Assembly (NCBI GenBank): GCA_026025075.1 | Contig: JAPEUI010000136.1 | Coordinates: forward strand, 1 to 40,080 | DNA from: Vezdaea acicularis | Taxonomy: Eukaryota | Length of the DNA: 40,080 nucleotides | Reading direction: 5' to 3' | Shown here: positions 4,341-40,080 of the stretch, piece by piece | Layout: every line of letters begins with the position of its first letter | Numbering within the stretch: position 1 is the stretch's first letter | The notes under the pieces: model-generated | What the model saw: only the letters and a program-made list of their open reading frames with translations | Databases searched by the model: none | What the model was told of the DNA's origin: nothing | Made by a program: the position numbers and the translations under genes

Positions 4341-4486
4341 TACGAAGGTACGTGTACAACCCGTAAAGAGTGTTAGCACGGTCAAGGGTGGCAACCCCTG
4401 CCCAAGAAAATAGTGCGAAGATGTTTTGCTGGTGCAAGGGTCTTCCCCTGCACATGCTAACACTCTTTACGGGTTGTACCTCCGTA
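4341..4486. mobile_element. MITE-like inverted-repeat element flanked by TA
   Basis: Perfect 25-bp inverted repeat at 4354-4378 and 4455-4479 (gtacaacccgtaaagagtgttagca). The arms extend outward as tacgaaggtac / gtacctccgta, with TA at 4341-4342 and 4485-4486. Confidence 0.6.
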
Positions 4487-9678: not shown

Positions 9679-11583
9679 CTAAGAACTATCCTTGTCGTCA
9701 TTGCCATCGCGGCTGGCCACTGAATTTGCGTACATATGAGACTTGATTGAATCCGAATCCGACCCGCCAACATCGTCATCAACGACCGGATCCCCTCCAG
9801 TCTTTGCATTATCGTGTTGAAATAGTTGACCAGTCGCGGTATACTTGAGTATGCTCGGCGATGATGACTTATTTGTGACTCCTAGCTGTTGAAAAGGCGT
9901 GACTGATTTATCGGGTTGTTCCTGGACGCCAGATAAGAAGCTGAAGGTATCCCAAGCCTCTTTCCAATCCTTATTGTTGCTTACTTTCTCTTCGGTGCGT
10001 CTTGCAATCACAGTCAATAGTCTTCTTGCTCTGTTGACTAAACCCAAATCTCCATCTGTCTTTGCACTTTTTCGGTAACGTCCGGAGCTGGCTGAACCTG
10101 GCGGCGAGGGGCTTCGTGGTCGTCTTGACGAAGTTGCTAGTGCTACTATTGGCTGATTGATATAACAGTTTTCTATTGCGAGTTGATTGGGTACCTGGTC
10201 ATATATTGGGTTTGAGGGCTTTGCACTACCGTGGATTATATTCCAGGTCTTTGGAACCGGTCCATTAAAGTCAGCCCCTACCAATGTGATGTTTTCTAGC
10301 GCTCCCACGCGGCCATCAATAAAGAAATAACCCGCCCCTTTAGGTACACGGTTCGAAGATATTTTGCAGTCTTTTCGAAAGTCGTGAGGCCAATATTCTG
10401 ACTTTTTACGGAAGGGAATCATCGAACGTACAATGTGGCCCAATGCTCGATCGCTGAGATCAACATAGACGGGAAATACCATCAAATGCTCCTCACCGGC
10501 GCTATAGACCCTTGCAGTTAGGACTTCAAGTGGACCTCTTGGATCAAAGAGCAGGAAAGTCTTATTGTCAGGATTGCCATGTCCATCGGTCGGCTGCCAC
10601 GTTCCTTTTGGATACTCCAATTCAGGAAGTCTCCAATAAGGATTCGCTAGTCCTGTCCGTTTTTTCGTGGCTGGTGATCCAATGAGGGTGTCTACTGTAT
10701 CATTTTTTCTTGCCGTTATTGATAATTCTTCCGTAGGAGTGTCCTGTCGAGGCAAGGAGATGCGATCAATCACCGTGTCATTCTGTTGTGGCGTTGACAA
10801 TGGTTCTTCCGTGGGAGTGTCATGTCGAGGCAAGGAGACGCGATCAATCACCGTATCATTCTGTCTTGCCGTAAATCGTAATTCTTCCGTAGGAGGGTCC
10901 TGTCGAGGCAAGGAGATGCGATCGATCACTGTGTCATTCTGTTGTGGCATTGACAATGGTTCTTCCATGGGAGTGTCCTGTCGAGATGGGGACATAGGGC
11001 CAATCACCGTATTATTCTGTTTGTCCTTTGGTGTTTCCAAACAGCCCGCCTTATTCACCCAACGGTTATATCGCCCAATAGGTCTGTCTTGTCCTGGCGC
11101 TTTCTTCTCGTCTACTATTATAATTCGGGGATACCTTACAACCCGTCTGTTGAGATCTTCCGGTATCTTCGACGTCCTTTTGATATAATCGTCCTTCGTG
11201 CGAGTTGAATCCTCCAGTTTTGCTTGAAAGATGATGTTTCGTTTTGTCTTAACATCAAGAGCGAGCGCCTTGACAAGTTCCCTATCGGTCTTTTCACACT
11301 CCGGAAATGCATGCCGAAATTTTGCGACAAGATCGGCTGAAAATACTTCTGGCTGCTGTATATCGAAAACTCGTCGCAATGCCTTGCAAGGGTAGTCTGT
11401 ACTATCGCATTCGATTGCTTTTAGGCGTTCGATGATTTCTTCTTCAGTTGGCTCGGTGAATAGATCAAACGTGACGTAAATCGCGTCAAAGACCATCTGT
11501 TTGGTCCACGTTGGTGGCCATGAGCCTTCAGTTGGTGCGAAATTGTCCGTAGGACAAGGCCCATCTGCCGTTAGTTCGTCCAT
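9679..11583 (-). CDS. Hypothetical 634-aa protein with internal 26-aa tandem repeats
   Basis: Long uninterrupted ORF starting at ATG; no family recognised. Confidence 0.82.
   Translation of the reverse strand: MDELTADGPCPTDNFAPTEGSWPPTWTKQMVFDAIYVTFDLFTEPTEEEIIERLKAIECDSTDYPCKALRRVFDIQQPEVFSADLVAKFRHAFPECEKTDRELVKALALDVKTKRNIIFQAKLEDSTRTKDDYIKRTSKIPEDLNRRVVRYPRIIIVDEKKAPGQDRPIGRYNRWVNKAGCLETPKDKQNNTVIGPMSPSRQDTPMEEPLSMPQQNDTVIDRISLPRQDPPTEELRFTARQNDTVIDRVSLPRHDTPTEEPLSTPQQNDTVIDRISLPRQDTPTEELSITARKNDTVDTLIGSPATKKRTGLANPYWRLPELEYPKGTWQPTDGHGNPDNKTFLLFDPRGPLEVLTARVYSAGEEHLMVFPVYVDLSDRALGHIVRSMIPFRKKSEYWPHDFRKDCKISSNRVPKGAGYFFIDGRVGALENITLVGADFNGPVPKTWNIIHGSAKPSNPIYDQVPNQLAIENCYINQPIVALATSSRRPRSPSPPGSASSGRYRKSAKTDGDLGLVNRARRLLTVIARRTEEKVSNNKDWKEAWDTFSFLSGVQEQPDKSVTPFQQLGVTNKSSSPSILKYTATGQLFQHDNAKTGGDPVVDDDVGGSDSDSIKSHMYANSVASRDGNDDKDSS
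10693..11019 (-). repeat. 78-bp coding repeat x4.2 with alternating A/B units
   Basis: QNDTVIDRISLPRQDxPTEE followed alternately by PLSxPQ or LxxTAR. Confidence 0.93.
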
Positions 11584-11660: not shown

Positions 11661-11771
11661 GGGTGTGGTGAAGTGAGTTGGGTGAGGTGAAGTGAGCTGG
11701 GTGAGGTGAAGTGAGCTGGGTGAGGTGAAGTGAGCTGGGTGAGGTGAAGTGAGTTGGGTGAGGTGAAGTGA
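11661..11771. repeat. 19-bp tandem repeat (gggtgaggtgaagtgagYt) x~6, just upstream of the 634-aa gene
   Basis: Directly visible. Confidence 0.95.
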
Positions 11772-13665: not shown

Positions 13666-13697
13666 TGCTAACATTCTTTACGGCCTGTACCTCCGTA
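13666..13697. repeat. Solo copy of the MITE-like terminal arm
   Basis: tgctaacattctttacggcctgtacctccgta matches 4455-4486 at 29 of 32 positions. Confidence 0.7.
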
Positions 13698-14410: not shown

Positions 14411-14503
14411 TCACTGGGGCCTTGAGTTGTCGGTTAGTCATATGGACAACCTACCATGTTCCCTTATACGCTCTTTCTAATGGCAAACTGCTTAGTACGA
14501 TAT

Positions 14504-15485
14504 CCTCACATTGGCGTTCAGGCGACTCCTAGGGCGCTCTCCTCCCTCGACGCATTGAGCAACCCTGAGGCGTTTCCTCCTCGCATTGGCGTTCAGGCGA
14601 CTCCCAGGGCGCTCTCCTCCCTCGACGCATTGAGCAACCCTGAGGCGTTTCCTCCTCGCATTGGCGTTCAGGCGACTCCCAGGGCGCTCTCCTCCCTCGA
14701 CGCATTGAGCAACCCTGAGGCGTTTCCTCCTCGCATTGGCGTTCAGGCGACTCCCAGGGCGCTCTCCTCCCTCGACGCATTGAGCAACCCCTGAGGCGTT
14801 TCCTCCTCGCATTGGCGTTCAGGCGACTCCCAGGGCGCTCTCCTCCCTCGACGCATTGAGCAACCCTGAGGCGTTTCCTCCTCACATTGGCGTTCAGGCG
14901 ACTCCCAGGGCCCTCTCCTCCCTCGACGCATTGAGCAACCCTGAGGCGTTTCCTCCTCGCATTGGCGTTCAGGCGACTCCCAGGGCGCTCTCCTTCCTCG
15001 ACGCATTGAGCAACCCTGAGGCGTTTCCTCCTCGCATTGGCGTTCAGGCGACTCCCAGGGCGCTCTCCTCCCTCGACGCATTGAGCAACCCTGAGGCGTT
15101 TCCTCCTCACATTGGCGTTCAGGCGACTCCCAGGGCGCTCTCCTCCCTCGACGCATTGAGCAACCCTGAGGCGTTTCCTCCTCGCATTGGCGTTCAGGCA
15201 ACTCCCAGGGCGCTCTCCTCCCTCGACGCATTGAGCAACCCCTGAGGCGTTTCCTCCTCGCATTGGCGTTCAGGCAACTCCCAGGGCGCTCTCCTCCCTC
15301 GACGCATTGAGCAACCCCTGGGCGTTTCCTCCTCCCTCGACGCATTGAGCAACTCCTGAGGCGTTTCCTCCTCGCATTGGCGTTCAGGCGACTCCCAGGG
15401 CCCTCTCCTTCCTCGACGCATTGAGCAACCCTGAGGCGTTTCCTCCTCGCATTGGCGTTCAGGCGACTCCCAGGGCGCCCTCCTC
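14504..15485. repeat. 75-bp GC-rich minisatellite, ~13 near-identical units
   Basis: Unit cctcgcattggcgttcaggcgactcccagggcgctctcctccctcgacgcattgagcaaccctgaggcgtttcct. Single-C insertions occur near 14790 and 15241, and one unit near 15320 is truncated. Confidence 0.98.
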
Positions 15486-15672: not shown

Positions 15673-16758
15673 ATGGGTCGTATCGAGCCAAGTCAACAAC
15701 AGCTTTGTTCTCAGACAGATGGTCTGACCACCAAAATCTTTACCTCTGCCCTTTTGCCTCCTCTCTGCGAAGATTCCGAAGATTCCGACGGTGGCGTGCT
15801 TACGGACAGCGCCACAAGTAGCATGAAAAGACCACCCTTTGCTGCCCAAAACTTTAATGATCGCACTGCGGTGAGCAACTCCAAAAAGCGGCTCGCTGTC
15901 GTGGAAGGCAAATACGACGACAACGACGACAACGACCATGACGACCATGACGACAATGACGACAGCGATACTACAAAGAGTGCCACTGCCGGCGGCGTCA
16001 AGAAATGTTCTGTTGCCAACGTCATTCGAAAGAAACGGAGTAGAGACGGCTCCTCCAAAAAGCGGCTCGCTGTCGTGGAAGGCAAATACGACGACAACGA
16101 CGACAACGACGACAACGACCATGACGACCATGACGACAACGACGACAGCGATACTACAAAGAGTGCCACTGCCGGCGGCGTCAAGAAATGTTCTGTTGCC
16201 AACGTCATTCGAAAGAAACGGAGTAGAGACGGCTCCTCCAAAGAGCGGCTCGCTGTCGTGGAAGGTAAATGCGACGACAACGACGACAACGACGACAGCG
16301 ATACTACAAAGAGTGCCACTGTCGGCGGCGTCAAGAAGTGTTCTGTTGCCAACGTCAATCGAAAGAAACGGAGTAGAGACGGCTCCTCCAAAGAGCGGGC
16401 CGTGGTCATCGAAGATAGTGACAACGACAACCACCACAACGATATTGTGAACAGCCCTAAAAAATCTGCTGCGGTCATCAAAGATGTTAAAGGTGGTGCC
16501 CACGCTGCCGGCGTCAAGGAACGTCCTGTCATCGACATCAATCATAAAAAACGGGTTAGAGCGAACACAGATCCTGAAGATGCAATCAGTCCATATAGGG
16601 AAAATAAGAGAGTCAAGGGTCAACATGAAGCGCTTTCAGTCGAGGATGATCAGAACGACGTTTTGATGTTCATCAGACATGCACAAGTGGCACTGTGCAG
16701 GGCCAAACAAAAAATGAAAGTATCGATCCGCCATCAGAATCTGGATATGGAGATTTAA
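15673..16758 (+). CDS. Hypothetical 361-aa low-complexity protein with alternating acidic and basic repeats
   Basis: ATG in aaaacaATG context within ORF 15421-16758. Three 50-61 aa repeats carry D/N/H tracts and RKKRSR motifs. Confidence 0.72.
   Translation: MGRIEPSQQQLCSQTDGLTTKIFTSALLPPLCEDSEDSDGGVLTDSATSSMKRPPFAAQNFNDRTAVSNSKKRLAVVEGKYDDNDDNDHDDHDDNDDSDTTKSATAGGVKKCSVANVIRKKRSRDGSSKKRLAVVEGKYDDNDDNDDNDHDDHDDNDDSDTTKSATAGGVKKCSVANVIRKKRSRDGSSKERLAVVEGKCDDNDDNDDSDTTKSATVGGVKKCSVANVNRKKRSRDGSSKERAVVIEDSDNDNHHNDIVNSPKKSAAVIKDVKGGAHAAGVKERPVIDINHKKRVRANTDPEDAISPYRENKRVKGQHEALSVEDDQNDVLMFIRHAQVALCRAKQKMKVSIRHQNLDMEI
15880..16410 (+). repeat. Coding repeat x3+ (174, 183, 150 bp) with a nested variable 9-bp microsatellite
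   Basis: Units start at 15880, 16054, 16237 and 16387; the length differences come mainly from (gacgacaac/gacgaccat)n. Confidence 0.93.
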
Positions 16759-17285
16759 TTGCGTTGACAGAAGATGCTTAGCTTACGAGATAGTCTCTAT
16801 ATAATTGAAAACTAAAAAATGATATCCCAACATCTCTCCAACCCCCATTTATGTTTTTGGGCTACGTGACATTTGCACAACGCAGGCTGTCTGTAGTCTT
16901 ATTTACAGGTTGAGCAGATTTGTGACGAGCGTCATCCCCTTGATGCACGCGGCCCCCACAGGCCTTGCTAGAACAAGTAGTAGAGATTACACTATTTTTG
17001 TACTACCGACAATACACACATGTATCATACAGTACCGGGCAAGTCTTCCTTAACTCTTTTTCTGTATTGCTGCGATATAGCTGCAGAGCAAATGCTAGCC
17101 GTCTTTAAGCTCAGCTCCCTCTGCCACTGCCGCCGCCACCGCCGCCACCGCCCCTGTAGTCGCGTTGTTCACGCTGGTAAAGGGTCCTATGCAAATGAAT
17201 GTGTCTTCTGATTTGCTCCTACTTATCTGCGCCTGCGGGATAAGAGGGCGGGCAAGAGAAAGTTCCAAACCTCGCGCTAGGTACC

Positions 17286-20200
17286 TTAAGTTCTTCTGTA
17301 TAAGAATCGAACATGTTCCTCCCGTACATGTTGACGTACCGATGTACCTTGCCATCCACAGACGCAATTGGGGTTGCGGAAAAAGTTGGAGGCCAAATAT
17401 ATCTTCCATAGTTCCCGAGCTTGGGCAACAAACTCATGGCGCTTCACGGTTTCCAGCTCGCTTTGTATGCCGATCCATCCTCTCAACGCTGCCGACCTAA
17501 TCTCTTCACGCTCGTCTGCGAACGCGTGCTTGAGGAATTTTAGATAAAGGTTCAGATTGATGTCAACTTCGCCATCCAATGCCGTCTTCAATTCGTCAGA
17601 GAGACAACGAGCGCTAATTACGCCACTCTGGAGAACTTTGAAAAGGATGCCGACCAAGACTCCTCCTTCTGACGTAATTGTAGAGTGTAGACTGCCTTCG
17701 GGAATATAGAGGCAATGAGAGCTATCTGTCCGGCACAGTATAGCACCTTCGAGCTGATCACATACCTGTCCTAGCCGATTCTTTTGTCCTGAGACGCTCC
17801 TGTAGACTTCACGATTTTTGGGAGTGGGAGGCCACATCATAAAGATCTTAGTCCCAGAAGCTGTATAAGATATACCGGCCTGGCCATGGTCTAGTTGCTC
17901 ATTCAGCGCTACTTCTGATGGGAAAGGATGATCTTACCAACGTGAAAGTCAACTACAGAGCCTTTCGGCACCACATTGGCTCCCCAGCCCACCCAATCAT
18001 CCAGAGGTGTCATAAACTGATGTAAGGAATCCGGAAATTTCATTAAAATATTATCAGGAAGCGTTGGTCTGAAATTAATCGCATAGGTTGGATCGTCTAG
18101 GCTGGGCCTCTCAATCTGTTCAAAAGCATTTCTTACATCTCCCTGCTCACCTCGCCAATAGGCTTCTCCTACATCTTTGATCAGACGTTATTCCTGGTTG
18201 TATGTATGACAAACTCACCGTCTTCTGCACACAGTTTACATGCATTGTATATTTCTTCCGGCAGAGGAGGGCGAGGTACAAAGCAGGACGTCGGAGAGAG
18301 AAGCCTTGGTGGAGAAGTTGTGCAACTCTTCCATAGAGCCTGTTGCTCTGTAGGCAAAGGTAGCAAAGGTAGCAAAGGTAGCCAGCCAGTATTGCAGATT
18401 GCCTGACGCAAGTCTTCGTTTTTGGATGTGAGCACGTCACACATCTCTTTCTTTAGACCGCTGACTTCTCGTTGAAGATAATAAGAATCCGCACCGAAGG
18501 CTTTCATTTCAATATTCACCATCATGGGGTAGGTTGCCGTATACGCATCCGTTAATCCATTTCTCACCTTGGTGACAAGTTTCCAGGCTTCCAATTCATC
18601 ATCTCCAAGTAAAATATACAGTTGTTGGAGGACTTCTGGGTCGTCCCAGGGTCGTTGTCCAGTTATAGCATCCCCCAATGCATAAACGCTCGGTAGACGG
18701 ACAGCTCCGGGAAATCGGCCTTGCGGAATGGCATGCTTTGGAGCTTGCCCTGTGACTTCCTTTATAGGAATCTCAAGATTGCGATGACATGCTGCAATCT
18801 GAAGCCTGTTTAATGCATTTGGCGTGTCTGAGATTGTCGAAGTGTCAGCGGCAGCAACAATAAACCAAGGAAAAATGGTTCTCCGCTGACGATTAGACAA
18901 GGGAGTTGACCCATGAATTATGTCTGGTCGCGTGAAACGGACGTCGAAAGCATTGCATGGTTGTGGAATAGGACACCCCCATTTAAGTTGATCGACTAAA
19001 GTATACGATTTAAGGCAGTTTGTTGTCTGCCCAGCACGATTGTCTCCGCGTTCACAAAGCTTTTTATGCCATTCTCTTATATGCTTATGGAAGCCAGGAA
19101 CTATTACCGTGCATCCGTGCTCATCTTCATTACGCAGCGAGATGGAAGTGCCAATGAGATTTGCTCCGATGCCATGGTCAATAAAGTTTTTCAAATTTAT
19201 ATCCAAATGCAAGAACTCAGTGTTCTCGCCGTTCTCGGTATTCTTGGTGATATACGGATACGATATCAAGTTCCACGCTTTGTCGGGTCTCGCTGCAACA
19301 CTCAGGGCGTACCAGACAGGGTCCTGCCGGACAAGCTGCTGAATCAAGCTGTAGAACATATTACGCATCCATCCTTGTCGGGATTTGCTCGGAGGGATCC
19401 AAAGATGATGTTCATACAGTTCAAATTCACCGTCGATCATCTCGCAAATGTTTTCTTGTTCAAGGTAACGGAACATGCCTGATGCAACGATCGATCCATC
19501 CTCTTGCCAAATGTTCCATGCGTCGGGGTTGATGTACCTTGCAAAAATGGTCTTTTCGTTGAAGACAAAGATGGGCGAGGGGACTGCAGCGTATCTATAG
19601 ATACCTCTTTCATCCTGAAGAGTACGAGGACGACTGTTCATCCTAAACCACCATGGCTCACGCCTCTTTAAGAGCTTCAGATCTGACATGCTTATGCGTT
19701 TCAGACGTTTTCCAAGCTCTCGATTTGAAATGTTATTGCACAATCCTAGATTTTTCGCAACGGCGCGCAAGTGCAGTCGGCATGCTTGAGTATAGTTGCT
19801 GTCATCAACAGTAGATAACTGACTGAGAAGGTCCTTTTCCGTTTGGAACGTTCGGGCCAAGCTACGCATCTGCTTTGTGCAGGTGCATGCCTCCTCTTCC
19901 ATTTCACACTCGTTGTCAAAACCTATCGCATCGTTCATCTGACTATCCGCAATGTTTTGATGTCCTTCTACGTCCTTGGCTATCTCACTATATGCTTCCT
20001 CATCCTCGTTGCTTTGTCCTGCGCAAGCTATATCGCTGATATTGTCGTTATCAAGATCCACGTTTGTGCCTTCTTCTGTATCAATTGAACTATGTTCTTC
20101 ATTCTCTCTATTCTCTTGACTTGTATTACTGGTGCTTCTTTGATCACTTTCACTACTTTCGCTATCCAACGTCCCTTGATCCACCATAGCTTGATCCACT

Positions 20201-20796
20201 ATGTCTTGATCTTCGTGTTCAAGGCTTTCGTTGGCTATTTGAAGCTCATATGTTGGCCCCACAGTTCGTGCCAATTTTGCTGCTCTGCACGCGGCTGTAA
20301 CATCTTGCAAGACGACATATTGGTACTTCCTGCTGCCCTTTGAAGTAAGTCGGCTGGCTATAGCCTTCTTAAGTAGCTCAACCGCCTCAGCTTGGCTTTT
20401 GAAAGAACTGAGTTCACGCAAGCCTTGAAGCAGGTGCCTCCCATATGTGGGCGGAGTGAGCTGTTGAGGGAGAATAGATCGACTATCACAACCCCAGACC
20501 TTGGTTATAGCTCTAATGTTTGATGCTATTCTCTTCTCGTTAGCTTCATGTTGGTCAATGTATTCACGGAAACCATCCTTGGCGATTAGAAAGTCGTTGT
20601 ATGAATCATATGAAGTCTTCCAAAGGTTTTTCAGTTCAATGATCTGGCATGCGACAGCGACTTCTTCCACAGCGCTATCGGCTTGGTTAGCACAGTCGAC
20701 GATGATGTCCCAAAGGTAATGAAACTGCTGCACAGGCGTTCCAGTCAGCTTCTGCGAGAGCCGATCAGCTACAGATTCTCCGGAGATTCCACTCAT
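17286..20796 (-). CDS. ~1137-aa protein with PhyH-like and JmjC-like 2OG-Fe(II) dioxygenase domains; join(20796..18219,18168..17938,17890..17286)
   Basis: Two canonical introns (GTGAGT..TAG, GTAAGA..TAG) join all segments in frame. Domain 1: FLHLDINL..SISL..CTVIVPGFH..DVRFTRPDIIHGS. Domain 2: NVVPKGSVVDFHVD..KIFMMWPPT..N..LYIPEGSLHSTIT. An alternative upstream ATG lies at 20847. Confidence 0.82.
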
Positions 20797-21143
20797 CACA
20801 CAATGTAGCCTCAGGTGATGAGAGATGGAGAATAATGCGAAAATCATTTTGATGCGTTCAAGCTAAGTACAACAGCGCAGATGCAGCTTGGCGCAGATGA
20901 GTCAGCATATGGGACATTCTACATGTCCCACATGCTGACTCATCCGACTTCAACTAAGCCACATCTGGGAACTCAAGGTAATACAGGTACCTGCCAAGCC
21001 TGCAGCAGGCGGTCATCTCTGTGGCTTGCATAGGTGCGTGCTAAGACATACACGCTCCTTGTATACGCTGCAATTAGCCACCACTTGCTATCATCCTGTT
21101 ATACATGGGTTAGGGCTTTCTTTCTGCCCAAAGCTACTCCATA

Positions 21144-22904
21144 CTATATGCAGAAAATCGCACTCCATTTGTGGAACCATCTGCGCTTGTTCTGTAAATT
21201 CTCTCCATCAGTTCCTTGCATCCTTTTAATAAACTGCGGGGAAGACTCGTGTGCGGTAGGCTTGTCTTGAACCCCTAGTGCTGACGGTGCCACATGCTTT
21301 GCCTTCTCTTCGTCGGTTCCTTGCGTCCTATTAGTAGACTGCGAGGATGACTCGTGTGCGGTAGGCTTGTCTTGAACATTCTCTCGATCAGTTCCTTGCA
21401 TTCTGTTGTTGGACTGCAAGGAAGACTCAAATGCAGTAGACTTGTCTTGAACATTTAATGTTTTCCTGTACATTAGTTCCAACGATTTCCTATTCCTGCA
21501 CATTTGTTCCATTGCGCCCTCGTGGGAATAACCATCGACGAATCTGATAATCCAGTACTCCTCCATACTCCTATCGGGGCTTTTTGTCAGAGGATAAAAC
21601 TCGTCGCTCTCGTCGCTCTCGGTGACACTATACATAAGCTCTAGAATATGTTGTTGCGCCTCAGCATCCTCATATACGAAAATGATTGCGCGAATGAATG
21701 AAATGACTGCATGCCATATGACAGCTCGATCGATATCAACGGGCTGTTCTCTATCAAGAAGAAGGCAAAACTCGCCCAACCCTACCAAGGCCACAAGCGT
21801 ATTTGATGGGGTAAAATGGTCAAGTGATATCATTGCAGCCATAATAAGGGCGAGCTCTTCAGGCTTGCTAGAGGTTTTGAGAGACGCAAGTAACCCGCGA
21901 CGGAACTCTCGGCCATCTGTGGAAGAGACCAAGCTTTGGAGTCCTTCCAAAATGCCCTTACTCTTGTAAGGGATTGTACGACACGCAACAAGAAAGCATG
22001 ACAGGTAGAATAGTTGACAATCCAGCACATGACGGTTTTGTTCATTGTGCTGCCTATGATTTGTTAGAAGCCAAACGCCCCAGGACTATTAAATTTGATA
22101 CTAACATGAAGAAGCGTATAAAGTCACTATCCTGGATGCTTGCCATCATGAGAATCATGTGCATAGCCGGAAAGGGCGTACGTTCTCCTCCTACGAAGTC
22201 TCCTAATAGTATTGTGATTGGCAAGGACGTTGCTAGGTGCGAGACATCAAGTTCAGCAACTTGTCGCGAGTCAGGGGATACGTCAAAGCCTAGTCCATAC
22301 TGCTGGATTATACTGATGGATTTTTTTGAATCGAAGGCAATCGTAGCAAAATTCGGCAGTCCAAAAACTTCATTGTACAGGATAAGATTTTGCAATGGCG
22401 AAAATCTTTTAGAATGTTTTTTATATTGGGAGTCCGCTTTGATACCGCTGCCAGATATGTATAGCAGAGTCCAAAGCAAGGCTAATGCTTGCGACCTCAG
22501 CTGCATTGCTCCTTTGTCAGCAAAAATGGCCCTGCTGCAGAGCTCTCGCCAGTAATCGTTGTCTCTCCAGGGCCGAGGAGTCCACGTCTTTAAACTTTGG
22601 AATTTGGGGTTATCAAGATGACAGCCGGAACAATCAAATAGGCCAATACAAAGAATTGCAGCGTAGTATCTGAATCTCTGAAGGGTTGAAGGAGAACATC
22701 TCTGCAAATAGTGAGTAGAGCTGCCAGTGGAATTGCAGGAAAACTTCTTACACCAAAGGCCTGATTAAACGCCGTCTCCCGGTTCTGTACTCTGGCTTGC
22801 TCCTCATCGAACCAGACATCATAATATGTGGGTGGGTTGGTCATTTCGACTAGATCAGACTCTGGCAGCGTCTCTATCACTAAGCAGCGCTCTGTTCGAT
22901 ACAC
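21144..22904 (-). CDS. Hypothetical multi-exon protein, apparently frameshifted near 22600 (possible pseudogene); start unresolved
   Basis: ORFs 22590-22904, 22054-22707 and 21144-22028. A GTTAGT..CTAAC..TAG intron at about 22104-22054 links the last two. The C-terminus has 25-aa repeats (VQDKPTAHESS..RxQGTD). Confidence 0.6.
21190..21455 (-). repeat. ~75-bp coding repeat x3
   Basis: VQDKxTAxESSxQxxxRxQGTDxE occurs three times. Confidence 0.85.
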
Positions 22905-23098: not shown

Positions 23099-23390
23099 GA
23101 TTGGAGCTGCGTTGCCACAGCCCCAATTCGCCCATGATTGGGGCTGCGTCGCCACAGCCCCAATTCGCCCACGATTGGGGCTGCGTCGCCACAGCCCCAA
23201 TTCGCCCACGATTGGGGCTGCGTCGTCACAGCCCCAATTTGCCCATGATTGGGGCTGCGTCATCACATCCCCCAATTTGCCCACGATTGGGGGCTTCGTT
23301 GTCACATCCCCTATTTGCCCATGGTTGGGGCTGCAGCGTTACAACCCCAATTTGCCCACGATTGGGGTTGCGTCGTTACATCCTTAATTG
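23099..23390. repeat. 37-bp tandem array x8, each unit a hairpin (ATTGGGGCTG-N8-CAGCCCCAAT)
   Basis: Units start at 23099, 23136, 23173, 23210, 23247, 23285, 23323 and 23360, degenerating rightwards. Confidence 0.96.
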
Positions 23391-24368
23391 GGGGGTTTGC
23401 ACTCTGCTAGAAGAACCGTCCTGAGGGGCGAGCACTCCTCCTATCAGAAACCACACCGTATCAGCAAAGAGATGCATGATTGTTAGTTTGGGCAGAGCGG
23501 CAACCCCCTGTACCTGCGAAATACCTCCTTCGTATCTTGTTGGTGCAGGAGTTGCCACCCTGTCCGAGCTAACAATCATTAAGGCCTGTACGCTACCTCT
23601 GTAGAGAAGAGCAGAAATAATGATCTGCTGAGAAGATAGAAAGCCAACAATAAACTATTGTAGAAGAGACTGCTAATATGCATAAGCTTATTTTGAGTGA
23701 CTTATACACTGCAACTACGGCGGAAAAAAATCTCGACTTTACCTACCCGATTTAGGGCTGCGAACATCGGATGAGAAGAGCATGCAAGATCGGAGACGCT
23801 ACACGATGGTCTTAACGACCACTTTTGAGTGCCAGGCGTCAATTCCACGGCTGCCCTGTACCAAGATGCAGCTAATTTGACAGGAAATGTTTACAAGATT
23901 CAAGGCTCCGTGTAGTTAGGCTAGTTGCCTAACATCTTCACCGACCATTCAATGATGCTTGAGTGTTTCCGGCCAGCCTTACTTCTGATGTTTCCCACAT
24001 TTATAGGCGGCCTCACTGTCTAGCACTCCACCCTCTCATCTTAATCACAAGCGTGTATGTAGGTACTACTGATTCATATGTTAGATTCAGACGTTAACAA
24101 AGATTAGTTATCTACCAATACCAGAGGACATATCACATCTAACAGCGCCTATTTCTTGGCCTGCTTACGCGGACTTAGCTACACTTTCTTGATCAACACC
24201 AGCTCAGATAACATTATCGTTGAGTAAGCCATCTTATCACTAGGTTCTTGAATAGACAACTCCACATGCCCCGCTTGCAAGAAAAGCTCGCGTGTCATAA
24301 ACTCACAGGAAATGCCTCACCAAACTTACCCCTCATCATCAAACTTCAACCCCCACCACAACAAAAAG

Positions 24369-25115
24369 ATGGATATTCCAGACGTTCAAGTCATGATAAA
24401 GGGCACACAGATATCTCTGAAGGATGATAGGAATAAAGCGATGCAGGCTCTCATCACAAATGAATGGCTAGTGCTTAAAAAGGCCACCAGTCTCGCTCAA
24501 GTGGAGCCTATTCTGGAGCAAAAATTATTCTCGCTGGATGCCGTAACAAAAGGCATTGCATTAAATTCAGTATGTCTCCCTAGCAAGCTCTCAATTACTA
24601 CTAAATATTTGCATAGGCTGTTACTTCAGTCCTATTTTCAGCACAAAAACGGAAATTTCGTATAAGCGGCCACTTGCCTTTAAAACTGCCTGTGAATTAT
24701 CCGATGAGCCAAGATGATGAAGCAGCAGAAATACGTAAATCTGGCGATTTAGTTGCCATCCAAGCAACTCATCTTGGAGGTGACAATGAGGTCAAGTGGA
24801 CTATCAACGTTGAAGGAAACGATGGAAAGATGGAAGCAGTTGAAGCAAATGGCGGTGACGTGTATTGTGTTCAAAATTTACTTCCAATTTACAGTCTAAC
24901 AGCAGTCTAGTTTTATGTGCAGCACTGCGTTGAAGCGATCGCCACCTTCACCAAACCCAAAGCAATCTCCACAGCATGCAATCGTAATATCTTACCTTTG
25001 GGAAGGGTTCTCGGATAAAGGGACTTTGCCGGATGATCTTGTTAGGAAACTTGTTAAAGTAGGAGAAGGACTTGTCTCTCAAGAGGGAAAATATGTCCTT
25101 CTAGATCAAGCATGA
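24369..25115 (+). CDS. Hypothetical ~216-aa protein; join(24369..24569,24617..24861,24911..25115)
   Basis: Introns GTATGT..TAG (47 nt) and GTATTG..CTAAC..TAG (49 nt) join three ORF-track segments in frame. Confidence 0.65.
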
Positions 25116-25188: not shown

Positions 25189-26182
25189 CTAATCCATTGC
25201 TTCGTTATAGAGAAACGTTGGCTCAGATTCATAGGATAGTGGGAGATCATTGTTTCCATACATTGCTGCGTTGCCAGACCAAAATACAGATCTTAGATTC
25301 GGGATACTAGTATGTGCCGTTGCTGCAGCTTCATAGGATAGTGGGAGATCATTGATTCCATACATTGCTGCATTGCCGGACCAAAATGGAAATCTTGGAT
25401 TTGGGGTACTAGTGTGTGCCGTTGGCGCAGCATCATAAGATGATGGGAGATTATTGCCGTCATACACTGCATCCGAGGTTTGACTCAAAACAGTTGCTGG
25501 GTTGCTAGCAGTAGTAGCATTAGATGCTGTAGTGAATGTTCCAATTGCGGGACGACGGGTGTCGTTATCAGCCGTGAGCCTCGGAGAGTCGTCATCAGAT
25601 TGCTCATCCAAAGATATCTGCGAAGAATCGTCGCTTTGCTCTGGGGATTCTCTTAATTGGAAAGCTACTGCAAAAGAACATATTAGCAGCTATTCAAGAT
25701 GCTATTTAGAAACACTGACTTGATCCTCTGTGAAGCATATTGAAATGAAAGCTACGACCCTGTTTTGAACTGAAAGGCTTTTTGCAAGCGCGACAAGTAT
25801 ACCATTTCTTATCGGTACGATATTGACGATGAGCTGGATCAATTTCACTCTTTATATGCCGCAGTAGATGACATGGCCTGGTGAACGACTTTGAACAGGA
25901 ACTAACTGGGCAACAGTGTACCTTCGCCCACTTTTCTAGACGAGAAAGTCTTTTTTCGGCGTATTCCAGACGTTGAAGCAGTTCGTTGCCTTCCTGAGGC
26001 CTACGATTCTCAGGAACTGGACCTTCATCAATTTTGGTAAATCTGCTGTTGGTCTCCAAAGTTGAGATACGGGAGTTGATGTCCTGGATGCGAGGTTCTA
26101 TAGCGGAGTGGTCCGGATTAGGCTTGCGACGTTTTCTCCGGGAACGCGTACTGTTAACCGCCGATGAAGTCACCAAGCTCAT
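25189..26182 (-). CDS. C2H2 zinc-finger protein (~313 aa); join(26182..25720,25667..25189)
   Basis: CPVSSCSKSFTRPCHLLRH and CRACKKPFSSKQGRSFHFNMLH, an NLS-like RRKRRK, and an in-frame GTCAGT..GCTAAT..CAG intron. The C-terminus has 34-aa repeats (AAMYGxNDLPLSYE..FWSGN). Confidence 0.85.
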
Positions 26183-27203
26183 AGTGAATAACAAGTTTGC
26201 TCGGGATAGAAGGCTTGAGGAGGTTGATCAAGGAGTTTTGCTTGAATGATTATAAGAATAGAGCCTTTCGCTAAACAAGTATCCAACTCATGGTCATGTG
26301 ATTCAAACATACCCGTCCCGTGATCACAGTGCCTGCACAAGGCTTAATTACACGACTCACCATAGATTAGAAAGCAGGGAAGTGCTGAGGCATTGCTTCC
26401 CCAGCGTTCATGCCGGATGCGGTTTAGTCTGCTCCCTGCTCGTACGCCTACACCTCACAACTACTCGCCCCCTTTCATATATCCTCCCTATCACGTGACC
26501 CTCACTCAGTACAAGGGAGCTTGCAACAAGTGGCTGTCACAACATATAGTCAAAGATTACTGTTTGATGCAGCCACATTCTTTCGTCATCCGACTTCAGA
26601 CTGTTGTGGGTATACCAAGGTCACGTGGATTCATTGTAGATAAGAGCATGAGGAAGTTGTCTATGTCATCCAAATAGATTCATTGAATACTGCCTGCCTG
26701 GCCTGCTCCCTGCTTGTATGCACGCCTCTTACAAGAGGTACGCACAAAGCTCGCCCACTTAATAATGGTTGGCTACCGAACAACCCTGATGTAGATATGA
26801 ACAGCTCAGACAGAGACTCAGAGACTCAGAGAAAATTTTCAAGTTATGGCTTAGTGAGATCCAACTTTCATAGACGTGGGACTTAATACTGATGGTGACT
26901 CAGCGTGAAGTCTTTGGGGCATGTCTAAGAAAAGGTACCAATCCTTCAATGACCAGATTTGGAGGAATGGGCAGACAATATTGGCTGCACTATTCGCATC
27001 CTGGCATATTAGTGGACTGGGACGAGGTTCGGAAAACATGAAGCGCCGCCTTGTGAATGAACGCTTTCATAGGATCAGATTTTTTGACGTTTGGAGGATG
27101 AGAGATGGATCCTTGTTAACATGATGCGGTCTGAAAGATTCTGAGCCTCATGGCGCCACGAGGGGTAAAGAGAAAGCTTGAAAGAAAGAGCAAGTTTAAG
27201 AAT

Positions 27204-31676: not shown

Positions 31677-34600
31677 ATGGAAAACGAAAGTAGTTCAAGC
31701 CAACGCCTAAAAAGTGAGAACTTCCGTGGTGCAGCTCGGATCAGATTTGCCAACCTTGATTTCTGGAACACCGAACGATCTGATGGACCGCCAGGCCGAC
31801 TGCATCGATCTCTATCTCCTGCTATAGTTAGTCGACTGCGAAGGGTGTTTGAGCTAGAAGGCTGCTTACGTCTAGATTCTGAAAATTATATATCGGCGAT
31901 ATTAGATCAGGTCTCACTGGACGCTATTCTCTCAGCTTCTCACATCAGTGCGCAAGACCTATTGCTTCCGCGTGATAATGGGATTCCGCCGCTCTTGGAT
32001 GTTCCCTTGTCCTGCAAAATCCAATGTCTCTCGGGACAGCATCGTATTGCCGCAGCTAAAGAGATTCTGGGAGAAAACGAAGAAGAATCCTGGTGGACAG
32101 TTAGTTTGTACGTATCAGGTAAGTCAAAATGTTTAACGCATGGCTCGTGCACACACTCTAATATATCCCAGAGTTGCCAATACCCACACTTTTACATATA
32201 CAAGAAGCATTTCCAAACGCTCAACCGTATTCGGACGGCGAGATCTTCCAGAAAATTTGTTTTTACCGTCAGACACAGCTGTTCAAGGCCGAAAGTAAGT
32301 GGTGGGCCAGACTTTCTCCAGCTAAGATGCGAGATCTTAAGCAGTTGCTTCGTCGTAGTGATTACACTGCAGAACTTGAAAACCTTCTGCATATGCCAGG
32401 ATTTTGGCGTCCTCTCCAATTTGGCGCTTTACATCGAGTACTGCCATTACGCAGTGACGAAGTTTGTGACCCGAGCATTGTTCCGTCAACATCAGCTAAT
32501 TGATAGTTAGGAAATGCTCAGCTATCTTCGACATATCACAGATACCTGGAAAAGAATTCTGGGACCTGTTCCGGGCTCCGCTGTGGATGTTACAACGGTT
32601 TCGAACCTTGAATTACTTGCACCCGGCCGTTCAAATCAGGATCGGCGTTTAGTACAACAACGAATGGAATCATTTCAGTTATTCCCTAAGGTGATTGACC
32701 GGAGTAAACGCACAATGCTTATGACTAACTTAAGTGGACTGGACTGTATCGTCCCTAGTTTACGAACTTTCTTCGACAACACCATTTATCTGGAACCTTG
32801 CTGTCTTGCTTTGAGAAGGCTTATTGGTCCAATGGAGCTACCAACTATCCGACAATGCCTTTTTGCATCCTATCGTCTACCAATCAAGCAAAACGTTGAG
32901 GTATATGAAGCTCGTTCACTACCAATAACCTGCTTTTCAACAGATCTCTTTCGATATTGTGGCTATAAACAACTCTGGTTGTACGCCATGCGACACCTTC
33001 CTGAACTGATATCATCTACCTGCGCACAAGCTCTGCCTAAAAAGGATCGACGAAAGCTGAAACCTCTTGCCAAAAGTACAGATCTTAACGCTTGGGACAA
33101 GTTTGCTAGGTTAGCACATCGCCTAGGTTTTATGACTCGAGGCAGTCAAGAAGCCCTTCTGGAGAATGCGGATCAGCTTATCGCAAGGGATTTTCTAATT
33201 CATGCCAAACCACGTTCCTCTCATAGTGTACATCAAGTGAACTTTGAGGAAGGGGTGAGGCAAATCACAGAAGTTTTATCTTACTTTCCAGCAAAACAAA
33301 CCCCTCCTAAAGAGGCTCCCCGATGGACATCAACTCAGCCTCTTCCGCTAGAACGAAGATGTGGCCGTCCTTTTGAGGGAAGCTATCATAGTGATTTCCC
33401 TTTTCTTTTCCTCAATCACATGTACGGAAACAGCTCAAATGATAAGGGAGAAGATATTACAACTCTTTTCGTGCGTAGAGATTTTGTGCGCGCTTTTTGG
33501 GGAAGAGATCAGGTAAGCTCCACTCCGCCATACTCATCTCTACTGCTAATTGATTCAGGAGTTTGATGTGAACACTCTTCAAGGTAATGCTGGCCCTGAT
33601 GATTCGTCTGAGCCAGCCATACGAATTATGGCATCGCAAATAAAAACGGTCAACAATCGTGCGAATGAGCACGCATCAGAACAGTCCACTGCTGATGCGA
33701 GGCCAACACAGGTACTAGAGGATACAATCCAGGAGCTTAAAGCCAAAGAGGCTATGTCTTCTATAGAACTACCCAAACTCAAGCAGCAACTGGCGGAGCT
33801 GGAATCGAAGCTTGAGTCTGTATTATCTGAGAAGCTTCCACTTTCAGAGAAGAACGTAAAATTATCAAATGACCTTCAAAAAAAAGACGCAGAGATTGAA
33901 CAACTGCAGCGGGATTTGCTTCAAATTAAGACTATTCAGCAAGCATCTAACTCGATTTCGGTCCAAGCCCAAGGAAGACGTCTACGTGAATATGAGGCTG
34001 AGATTGCCATATTGAATGGGAGATGCAATGAAGTCACAAAAGAAATGAACCAATTAAAGCAACAACACGAGAAGGTAATACAAGATCATGCGGGAAGAGA
34101 AGGTAATATTGAAGCAGAAAAAGCAAGACTCCAGGAAGAGATTAACAAATTGAACGGAAGGTGTAATGAAGTCACAGAAGAAAAGAATCAATTAAAGCAA
34201 CAATACGAGAAGGTAATACAAGATCATGTGGGAAGAGAAGGTAACATTGAAGCGGAAAAAGCAAGACTCCAGGAAGAGATCAACAAATTTAACGGGAGGT
34301 GTAATGAAGTCACAGAAGAAAATAATCAACTAAAGCAACAATACGAGCAGGTAATACAAGATCATGCGGGAAGAGAAGGTAACATTGAAGCAGAGAAAGC
34401 AAGACTCCAGGAAGAGATCAACAAATTTAACGGGAGGTGTAATGAAGTCACAGAAGAAAATAATCAACTAAAGCAACAATACGAGCAGGTAATACAAGAT
34501 CATGCGGGAAGAGAAGGTAACATTGAAGCAGAGAAAGCAAGACTCCAGGAAGAGATCGCCAGATTGAAAGAGAAGTGCAGCGAAGTCATGGAAGAAAAAA

Positions 34601-35562
34601 GCCAAGTGATGCAGCAATACGAGAGGTTGTCACAGGAGCATACTGAGACCAAAAATACCGCTGAAGCAGTATTATCCAAGCTCCAGGGGGATATTTCACT
34701 TCATCAACATGAAACAGGACGTCTACAACAACAGCTGACCAGCTCGGAGAGAAATGTCTTGGCTTTACGTGAGGATCTCATACAAGCCAAAGAACAAGCT
34801 GCAGACACTCGGATGGTTGCTGCCAATACATTCTCAAGTATGACGATATCTGCAGCGGATGCTATTGCAAAAAGTCGGGAAGAAGCTTTGGAGAAAGCGC
34901 TGATATTACTCAAAGAGTTAAAGACCTCTCAGGATGATGCTTCCACTAACGATCAGGGAGTACTCATAATATACCATGGTACGGAATTGGATCGCATCCG
35001 GGTTCATACTATCAGAGCGGATGACGAGAACCTTCAGCGACTTGCTATATACGTCACGCAAGCAAAGGTACGCTTGTTGTCTTACTGTGGTAGTTCTCTC
35101 GATCCCGAGCAATTTGCAGCAATGAGAGCGTACGCCAAGGAGTATCATGTTGTCTACATTGTTACAGAAGAAGACCTAGGGAGATTTAAAAATACGCTTG
35201 AGGAGCAATTCAATAGCTGGTGTGGAGAGGATGATTTGTCTCAATCAGCCGTAGGGAAGCGATCAATAGGGAAGCGATCAATAGGGAAGCGACCAATGTT
35301 GACAATAGAGTATCCTGAACAACCCAGCAGCTCTCTAACAATTTGGAAGCCTGAACAGATACTAGGAAAGAGGGGCAATCAGAAAGAAAAGGCTGCTGCC
35401 AAAGGAACACAAATTAAACGGAGGCTGATCAAGGAACCAAAGAGTATTAAAGGCCGCAAAACTGATAATATGGAGGTTGAAGAACCTAGTCTCACGTCTG
35501 AGGATGTTCTTGAGACGGCCATGCAGGATCTTACGCCAGGTAGCAGCTCAAGTCAGCAATAA
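31677..35562 (+). CDS. DUF3723-family protein with long C-terminal coiled coil (~1245 aa); join(31677..32118,32172..32461,32511..33512,33559..35562)
   Basis: Characteristic blocks RLRRVFELEGCLRLD.ENYISA, CLSGQHRIAAA, WWTVSLY, YSDGEIFQKI, WWARLS, VPSLRTFFDN..YLEPC, QLWLYAMRH and RRCGRP. Three canonical introns join the segments in frame. Confidence 0.9.
34012..34640 (+). repeat. 138-bp (46-aa) coiled-coil coding repeat x4.5
   Basis: NGRCNEVTEExNQLKQQYExVIQDHAGREGNIEAEKARLQEEINK units starting at 34012, 34150, 34288 and 34426. Confidence 0.95.
35251..35295 (+). repeat. 15-bp coding repeat x3 (GKRSI)
   Basis: Rtagggaagcgatca x3. Confidence 0.85.
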
Positions 35563-39335: not shown

Positions 39336-39942
39336 AACGTAGTGAAGTCTCCTTGTAATAAGATCAGCTCGAACGCAAAACATAGAACAGGCGCCTGAGT
39401 GGGGCTTGATATAGAAACCACGTTCGAATAAAGCTCCCAAGGTCCAGCTTCCAGGTCGCTCAGTTGAACAACGCACAACTTGCAAGAGCGCCATCTCAGG
39501 CAGGGTCACCAGAACTAAGCCTCATTTTGGGACAGACAAGCCCAGCCTTCCCTGCTCCATGCTTGGGCTATTATTCTACGGCCAATGACTTAGATACCCA
39601 CGTTTTTGCATTAATGACTCGCATCCTATATCACACCGCCTTTTTCCACCGCTTTGTGACTGTATATGAGTTTTGGAAGCAGCGTCACTCGCGTACTACG
39701 CTGAAGTCTCTTTTTCGCAGCTAGATTCCATTTATCACGTCTCTTGTATCGAACAGGTCGCTCCTTTGCGCAGCAATGCCAGCTGGGAAGTCAATGTGCA
39801 GTCGGTACAGTACAGAAGGGCTCCCTAGGAGATCATACCAGCGCTAAGGGGGACAAATATGGGTTATGAGCCGTGAAGACCGGCGGCAATGTTGAGTCAA
39901 GCTTCGTGCCGTTGGAAAAAAAATAATCTCTTGAACAAGGCT

Positions 39943-40080
39943 GGGCTGCACCAACAGCCCCCGAATGTATGTAGATTGGGGCTGCGCGTACAGCCCCCGA
40001 ATGTATGTAGATTGGGGCTGCGCGTACAGCCCCCGAATGTATGTAGATTGGGGCTGCGCGTACAGCCCCCGAATGTATGT
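39943..40080. repeat. 36-bp tandem hairpin array (gattggggctgcgcgtacagcccccgaatgtatgta), runs off the window end
   Basis: Identical units at 39974, 40010 and 40046, plus a variant unit from about 39941. Confidence 0.96.

Follow-up and report, generated by a model that had tools for sequence, protein, structure and literature searches.

Two hairpin-prone tandem arrays with a shared palindromic core on a Starship-like contig of Vezdaea acicularis

Location and Structure of the Arrays

Contig JAPEUI010000136.1 of the lichen-associated ascomycete Vezdaea acicularis (order Vezdaeales; metagenome-assembled genome, GenBank assembly GCA_026025075.1), which was analyzed over its whole length of 40,080 bp (hereafter the window), carries two tandem arrays whose units are each organized around an inverted repeat. 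Array A (23099..23399, no strand assigned) consists of 8 head-to-tail units of 37–40 bp and lies between two divergent genes. Array B (39938..40080, likewise unstranded) comprises at least 4 units of 36 bp that are 97% uniform, and runs off the contig end. Together the arrays bracket a group of genes characteristic of Starship elements. With a probability of roughly 0.5, we read them as two members of a non-coding, hairpin-prone minisatellite family that would have grown by slippage or unequal exchange.

A preliminary description of array A had proposed eight 37-bp hairpin units with 10-nt arms and an 8-nt spacer, and all three ways of reading the sequence agree with it. Tandem Repeats Finder (TRF) reports a row at 23099–23380 with a period of 37, 7.6 copies, 87% matches, and a score of 371. 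A repeat search recovers 7 in-register copies with spacings of 37, 37, 37, 37, 39, and 37. By direct reading, the unit is composed of a G, the left arm ATTGGGGCTG, an 8-nt spacer, the right arm CAGCCCCAAT, and a 9-nt linker, the two arms being 10-nt inverted repeats of each other. From unit 1 to unit 8, the arms are complementary within their own hairpin at 9, 10, 10, 10, 7, 6, 8, and 7 of 10 positions; units 2–4 thus have perfect arms, units 5–8 are decayed, and the rightward decay seen earlier is real. The corresponding hairpin energies, calculated with DNA parameters, are −6.0, −11.2, −11.2, −11.2, −5.6, −2.2, −5.3, and −0.7 kcal/mol. As a single strand the entire array folds with −74.8 kcal/mol as against −52.6 ± 3.8 kcal/mol for shuffled versions (z = −5.9), and none of 100 shuffles folded as well.

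The pattern GGGGCTG-N4-12-CAGCCCC has six matches in the window, compared to 0.00 expected from 100 shuffles, and three of these six sit in array B, which the preliminary description did not include. A search with the 10-mer that allowed one mismatch gave 19 matches vs. 2.7 expected; 15 of them are inside arrays A and B, and the remaining 4 are isolated half-sites.

As head-to-tail copies of one unit in the range of 10–100 bp, array A qualifies as a minisatellite, and it appears non-coding, as its period of 37 cannot be divided by 3 and no Pfam family matched the open reading frames (ORFs) that cross it. One of these ORFs was also compared with 5.8 billion predicted proteins, of which those of 61–196 aa were covered, without any match. 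A coding repeat was dropped as an explanation on the same grounds of period and missing Pfam and protein matches. Three further candidates were set aside. The units have diverged from one another, and array A is therefore real rather than an assembly artefact. A G-quadruplex reading fails on the distance between G-runs (37 nt), and a small-RNA precursor on the stem length, since stems of 10 bp are too short for Dicer. No match was obtained in Rfam at gathering thresholds, and ARAGORN predicted no tRNA gene.

Array B has a period of 36, at least 3.8 copies, and 97% matches according to TRF. The window is the whole contig, so that this copy number at the contig end is an unreliable lower bound; the end of the contig within the array suggests that the assembly broke there. 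Two words occur in both arrays with the same orientation: one of 13 nt, made up of the initial G, the left arm, and the two bases that begin the spacer, and one of 8 nt, made up of the final base of the spacer and seven bases of the right arm. Otherwise the arrays differ in their spacers, that of array B (6 nt) being shorter than that of array A (8 nt), and the geometry of array B is about 7-6-7 compared to 10-8-10 in units 2–4 of array A. The right arm of array B furthermore contains a 2-nt insertion and reads CGAAT where array A has CCAAT, and the linkers of the two arrays are unrelated. The different spacers, together with the differing right-arm tails and linkers, fit a sequence that folds back on itself better than a dimer-binding site of fixed spacing.

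Degeneration of Array A

Compared to their consensus, the units of array A have accumulated 23 transitions, 10 transversions, and 2 indels. Changed positions are less frequent in the arms (13/162) than in the loops (22/136; p = 0.03, or p = 0.06 without the terminal unit), which at first sight might indicate that the arms are preserved. However, almost all loop changes convert CpG to TpG or CpA, and the arms contain no CpG. The difference between arms and loops thus follows from the mutability of the sites, and selection is unnecessary to explain it. Moreover, units 5–8 have lost 2–4 of their 10 arm pairs and no compensating change was found inside any hairpin, which argues that the hairpins are not maintained. 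Internally, array A shows the pattern of a repeat in decay.

One pairing between neighboring units was observed in the decayed part. At 23323–23370, the altered right arm of unit 7 is exactly complementary (10/10) to the altered left arm of unit 8, across the linker between them, and each of these arms has lost pairing in its own unit. This single case could be due to chance or to templated repair on an alternative fold-back.

The Minisatellite Landscape of the Contig

TRF returned 60 rows over the window, which collapse into 18 non-overlapping arrays with periods from 12 to 160. This minisatellite density is very high for 40 kb, and it indicates that tandem duplication is common here whatever the sequence. 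What sets arrays A and B apart is their self-complementarity, in which they rank first and second of the 18. The consensus unit of array A folds with −0.336 kcal/mol per nt (z = −3.8) and that of array B with −0.240 kcal/mol per nt (z = −1.8). The third-ranked minisatellite has a composition that suits folding, but its z-score is only −0.2. Sequence sharing gives a similar picture: when the 18 consensus units are compared in all 153 pairs, the 13-nt word of arrays A and B is followed by one of 9 nt as the next-longest shared word.

The other minisatellites include arrays at 2320–2487 (15 bp × 11), 10697–11021 (78 bp), 11661–11771 (19 bp), 14503–15485 (75 bp × 13), 15879–16442 (150–183 bp), and 25216–25456 (102 bp). 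Several minisatellites sit amid overlapping long ORFs on both strands that lack a family match.

Flanking Genes and Possible Promoter Effects

Array A lies in a gap of about 1.5 kb whose borders agree with the divergent gene pair assumed in the preliminary description: a minus-strand gene starts at 22844 on its left, and a plus-strand ORF set at 24312/24370 on its right. The left neighbor (21147..22844, minus strand) is annotated with three exons and encodes the hypothetical protein P0002 of 532 aa. Its ATG at 22844 is 255 bp from the first unit, which places array A 255–555 bp upstream of the gene. P0002 belongs to no Pfam family and found only itself among homologs in the length range searched; in the ESM Atlas the best score was 0.79, which is uninformative. 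The right neighbor (24312..25115, plus strand) is a putative small gene in which two short GT...AG introns with CTAA-type branch sites connect three ORF pieces, its splice sites being read by eye without homology confirmation, and it has no family match. Beyond P0002, an annotated protein of 1203 aa (17098–20847, minus strand) likewise matched no Pfam family, and over the protein lengths that were searched its only homolog was itself.

This position raises the possibility that array A is a cis-regulatory element, in which each unit would offer one site or a pair of sites to a host transcription factor and the array would tune the two divergent genes. Candidate factors are the CCAAT-binding complex, acting on ATTGG and CCAAT (or CGAAT), and a zinc-finger factor acting on the GGGGCTG half-sites. 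GGGGCTG may also resemble calcineurin-responsive (Crz1-type) sites. The 301 bp of array A contain 14 CCAAT/ATTGG pentamers, compared to a median of 1 per 300 bp in the window and 5 in the next-best segment, and they are situated 255–555 bp before the ATG at 22844. In array B, ATTGG is retained and CGAAT would still be a potential site, since CGAAT as well as CCAAT is reported to be bound by the fungal CCAAT-binding complex (PMC4954732). A small gene with two weak C2H2 fingers (25709–26227; E = 0.003, below the Pfam cut-off) lies 2 kb from array A. The same source describes a precedent at cyp51A of A. fumigatus, where a 34-bp tandem repeat in the promoter changes transcription-factor occupancy (PMC4954732). 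Array A is similar to this TR34 in being a tandem repeat of about 35 bp that contains CCAAT/CGAAT-type pentamers and precedes a start codon by a few hundred bp. TR34, however, has 2 non-palindromic copies with sites for SrbA and the CCAAT-binding complex, and both binding and phenotype are shown in that account (PMC4954732), whereas array A has 8 palindromic copies. The pentamers moreover belong to the palindrome itself, so that their density in array A is not independent evidence. In addition, pentamers have been lost in the decayed units 6, 7, and 8, and no known gene start lies beside array B. We thus consider a dedicated regulatory role unlikely, although it is the first alternative to be kept in mind. 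If arrays A and B are instead members of a minisatellite family, the location of array A in a shared divergent promoter gap and its 14 pentamers mean that any effect it has would most likely be an incidental change in promoter strength or chromatin, and not one on recombination or partition.

Relatives and Dispersal of the Core

Searches for relatives of the arrays were largely negative. When the window was scanned with a profile built from the cores, no solo copy turned up apart from the arrays, and the best match outside arrays A and B had an E-value of 0.17. A metagenome scan with the 20-base core pattern yielded 17 loci on unrelated contigs (G+C 0.38–0.65), each one a solitary hairpin, and no array. 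Among viral contigs, 58 loci were found, of which 55 had one match and 3 represented the same palindrome counted on both strands; again, none was an array. A single hairpin of this kind thus arises often in unrelated DNA, and the matches have no bearing on related fungi. A literature search on palindromic minisatellites in fungi returned nothing relevant.

The presence of the core at two loci 16.5 kb apart requires a dispersal step, and one could therefore regard the arrays as a transposon-derived satellite. The core would then be the end or a sub-terminal protein-binding repeat of a small mobile element, such as a miniature inverted-repeat transposable element (MITE), a Helitron-type 3′ hairpin, or CACTA-like sub-terminal repeats, and this element would have spread to two loci before its amplification in tandem. 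The contig break inside array B would be expected if the repeat is long or present at several loci. Small foldbacks do occur on this contig. A near-perfect hairpin of 104 nt (23476..23579, no strand assigned) begins 77 nt to the right of array A, and a dispersed foldback repeat at 4354–4479 has a copy at 13666–13697. Neither array, however, is flanked by terminal inverted repeats (TIRs) or a target duplication, and the 40 kb contain no solo copy. The ends of the unit also differ from the CTRR end of Helitrons, and at 37 bp the unit is far below the size of any autonomous or non-autonomous element that we know of. A transposon origin is thus rather improbable.

The two foldbacks have features of their own. 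As RNA, the 23476–23579 hairpin folds with −61.7 kcal/mol (z = −8.5) for the plus and −53.6 kcal/mol (z = −5.3) for the minus strand. It has no match in Rfam and could be a foldback/MITE-like element or a hairpin-RNA precursor. The repeat at 4354–4479 consists of two inverted 35-nt arms that are 89% complementary and separated by 56 nt; one of its arms recurs 9.2 kb away at 13666–13697 with 91% identity, and the repeat is distinct from arrays A and B.

Bacterial repetitive extragenic palindromic sequences and bacterial interspersed mosaic elements (REP/BIME) offer a further comparison, as they too are short, G+C-rich intergenic palindromes that occur in clusters. These repeats, however, are prokaryotic, have copies of alternating orientation, depend on an association with RAYT transposases, and are scattered in the hundreds. 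In arrays A and B we see none of these features.

Starship Genes on the Contig

All 174 stop-to-stop ORFs of at least 70 aa on the contig were scanned against Pfam at E ≤ 0.001. The informative families are DUF3723 (three ORFs, which are exons of one gene), Patatin, Ferric_reduct/FAD_binding_8, and several coiled-coil families that match the C-terminus of the DUF3723 protein; matches to SWIRM-assoc_2 and ArsA_HSP20 are weak or compositional and uninformative. The contig thus contains three of the Starship accessory families. According to PMC9156397, a region with at least three of DUF3723, FRE, PLP, and NLR but without a captain represents a “degraded Starship” or a Starship-like region. Consistent with this designation, neither a DUF3435 captain nor any other integrase family was found among the 174 ORFs of this 40-kb contig, and no DUF3435 gene occupies the 5′ end of an element within it, though a captain may lie beyond the contig ends. 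A MADS box and a ParA-type ATPase were also missing from this ORF set. The ferric reductase gene has array B on its downstream side, where the contig ends.

The captain is central to one function that had been suggested for the array from its geometry. A unit might be a core site of the Starship tyrosine recombinase, with two inverted arm-binding sites around an 8-bp crossover spacer. The geometric part of this suggestion holds: the 10-8-10 arrangement of array A is in the range of loxP and FRT (13-8-13) and dif (11-6-11), and, as in these sites, inverted arms enclose a spacer of 6–8 bp in both arrays. One Starship family member is also said to target a palindromic sequence (PMC11162782). The proposed function does not follow from this. 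Published Starship ends are not arrays but carry short direct repeats of 4–5 bp and short TIRs of 10–12 bp, as far as the available accounts describe them (PMC13486527, PMC9156397). Recombinase sites such as loxP, FRT, and dif, like Starship ends, are single, located at the ends of the element, and accompanied by a recombinase gene, whereas array A has eight direct copies, lies internally on the contig, and has no captain beside it. Eight direct copies of an asymmetric site would moreover be deleted by their own recombinase, and the 6-nt spacer of array B has a different sequence, so that a crossover between arrays A and B would be non-homologous. We regard a captain core site as scarcely credible. 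Our literature search on Starships with tandem repeats, hairpins, or palindromes found nothing on internal arrays.

The DUF3723 Protein and Partition-Like Models

The DUF3723 gene (31677..35559, plus strand) lies between the arrays, with array A 8.3 kb upstream and array B 4.4 kb downstream. It is intact, has four exons, and encodes a protein of 1245 aa (P0003); an in-frame TAG at 32508 falls in an intron. In the protein, a ParB/sulfiredoxin (Srx)-like N-terminal domain is followed by a middle domain that is helical and, at the C-terminus, by a long coiled coil. The coiled-coil exon contains a 138-bp repeat at 34011–34624 (plus strand; 46 aa, 4.4 copies, 91%), an in-frame tandem duplication by which the coiled coil is being extended. 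In the literature, the function of DUF3723 is stated as not known (10.1101/2025.02.28.640899), and a relationship to SMC-type segregation proteins has been noted (PMC9156397).

The first ~150 residues of the protein, encoded by the first exon (31677–32135, plus strand), are conserved in 726 cluster representatives (E ≤ 0.001). An alignment of 63 of these representatives shows the motif C-L-H-G-x-H-R-I-x-A-A to be near-invariant, with G120, R123, and A126 invariant. Sequence methods alone fall short of a ParB/Srx assignment: a profile of the domain had no match among PDB sequences at E ≤ 10, and the Pfam family DndB matched it with E = 0.13 only. The predicted structure is more informative. An AlphaFold model of the N-terminal domain has a mean predicted local distance difference test (pLDDT) score of 89. 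In Foldseek, its top rows are weak (E 0.18–1) and name sulfiredoxin, KorB, ParB, Noc, PadC, and SbnI. A structural search against 48,161 PDB representative chains returned 12 at Z ≥ 2, all of the ParB/Srx type, among them sulfiredoxin (Z 7.9, 2.6 Å over 80 residues), PadC (Z 6.6), a serine kinase (Z 6.6), Atu1540 (Z 5.9), KorB (Z 5.8), SbnI (Z 5.7), pNOB8 ParB-N (Z 5.0), Spo0J (Z 3.0), Osa (Z 3.0), and SspE (Z 2.2); by the tool's own caution values of Z < 8 are middling, but the list is clean nonetheless. The near-invariant motif and these 12 of 12 matches support a predicted ParB/sulfiredoxin-type fold and lend substance to the ParB-like motif that the preliminary description had suspected in DUF3723.

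Such a fold invites comparison with plasmid partition. The F-plasmid centromere sopC consists of 12 units of 43 bp; every unit contains an inverted repeat of 16 bp to which SopB, a protein of the ParB family, binds. The STB locus of the yeast 2-micron plasmid is a repeat array at which Rep1 and Rep2 act. Arrays A and B resemble these loci in their tandem units with one inverted repeat each, which is the anatomy of sopC, and in their occurrence on the same element as a gene for a protein with a ParB/Srx-type N-terminal domain, which here lies between them. They might thus be centromere-like arrays (similar to sopC, parS, or STB) bound by an element-encoded protein, most plausibly DUF3723, and this binding would tether, condense, or segregate the excised Starship. 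Against this stands a series of observations. The ParB/Srx fold also occurs in enzymes that do not bind DNA, and sulfiredoxin, the serine kinase, and SbnI are among the matches. In the middle domain (351 aa, model pLDDT 83.6), structural searches recognized no helix-turn-helix or other DNA-binding fold and gave no convincing match to any known fold; Foldseek found nothing at E ≤ 0.001, and the best VIA-align hit had Z 5.0 over 44 residues. Unlike in the sopC system, no ParA partner was found among the 174 ORFs of the contig, the candidate gene is more than 4 kb from either array, at about 8 kb from array A, and half of the array A units are decayed. The unit spacing of 37 bp also corresponds to about 3.5 helical turns, which is not a whole number, and the distance between half-sites changes from 8 nt to 6 nt between arrays A and B. 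In the literature that we could consult, 34 papers mention DUF3723, and ParB appears in none of them.

Given these points, centromere-like arrays are a very unlikely explanation. The more specific proposal that the arrays act in cis for a partition or tethering system that is eukaryotic and carried by the element, with DUF3723 loading on the hairpin units, would be highly improbable, and equally so the corollary that DUF3723, with its predicted ParB/Srx N-terminal domain and SMC-like coiled coil, bridges or segregates the excised Starship. Of the analogy to recombinase and parS-like sites, what stands is therefore the 10-8-10 geometry; what does not is the machinery and the constancy expected of it, as captain and ParA were not found on this contig, the spacer varies, and the arms decay without compensation. 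The functional link of the array to a captain or to DUF3723 that had been implied is unsupported, with no captain in the 174 ORFs and the DUF3723 gene 8.3 kb away. The predicted ParB/Srx fold is a lead on DUF3723 itself, and nothing ties this protein to arrays A and B.

Origin of the Arrays

We return to the interpretation of arrays A and B as a hairpin-prone minisatellite family. The unit of this family is built on a short, G+C-rich palindrome. In single-stranded form such a unit would fold back on itself, which would favor replication slippage and unequal exchange and thereby lead to head-to-tail duplication. Array B would be young and uniform throughout, as would array A at its left end, whereas the right end of array A would be old and decaying, mostly by CpG-to-TpG transitions. 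Neither array would need a dedicated protein. The build of the arrays, their tendency to form hairpins, the pattern of decay, the common core, and the neighboring genes can be seen in the sequence itself; a slippage mechanism, a common origin of the two arrays, and the lack of a dedicated function are what we infer.

A parallel is provided by FRA16B and FRA10B, the AT-rich palindromic minisatellites of human fragile sites whose growth is ascribed to slippage on fold-backs. Like these, arrays A and B consist of head-to-tail units of tens of bp that are self-complementary, non-coding, and variable. Array A differs, however, in its G+C-rich core, its mere 8 units, and its location in a fungal promoter gap, and its palindrome recurs in a second array, where spacer and linker are different.

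Several observations weigh against this interpretation. The arms of array A are altered about half as often as the loops. Strongly self-complementary units occur only in arrays A and B among the 18 minisatellites. The 13-mer and 8-mer that they share mean that the two arrays are linked by common descent or by a constraint acting on both, and slippage alone leaves the presence of the core at two places 16.5 kb apart unexplained. The arrays furthermore bracket a Starship accessory module (patatin, DUF3723, and ferric reductase), and pentamers reportedly bound by the CCAAT-binding complex are kept in both of them, as CCAAT in array A and as CGAAT in array B.

Implications

As a minisatellite, array A and its relative are of minor import: they may make the local promoter variable, and they break short-read assemblies. 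The shared palindrome would matter if it were a true protein site tied to the Starship accessory genes, as to our knowledge no cis-acting sequence beyond short terminal repeats has been described for Starships. Should the partition model be true, it would supply the first function for DUF3723 and a plasmid-like maintenance step for Starships. Independent of the arrays, the predicted ParB/sulfiredoxin-type fold with its motif of the G-x-H-R-x-x-A-A type would offer a concrete lead on DUF3723.

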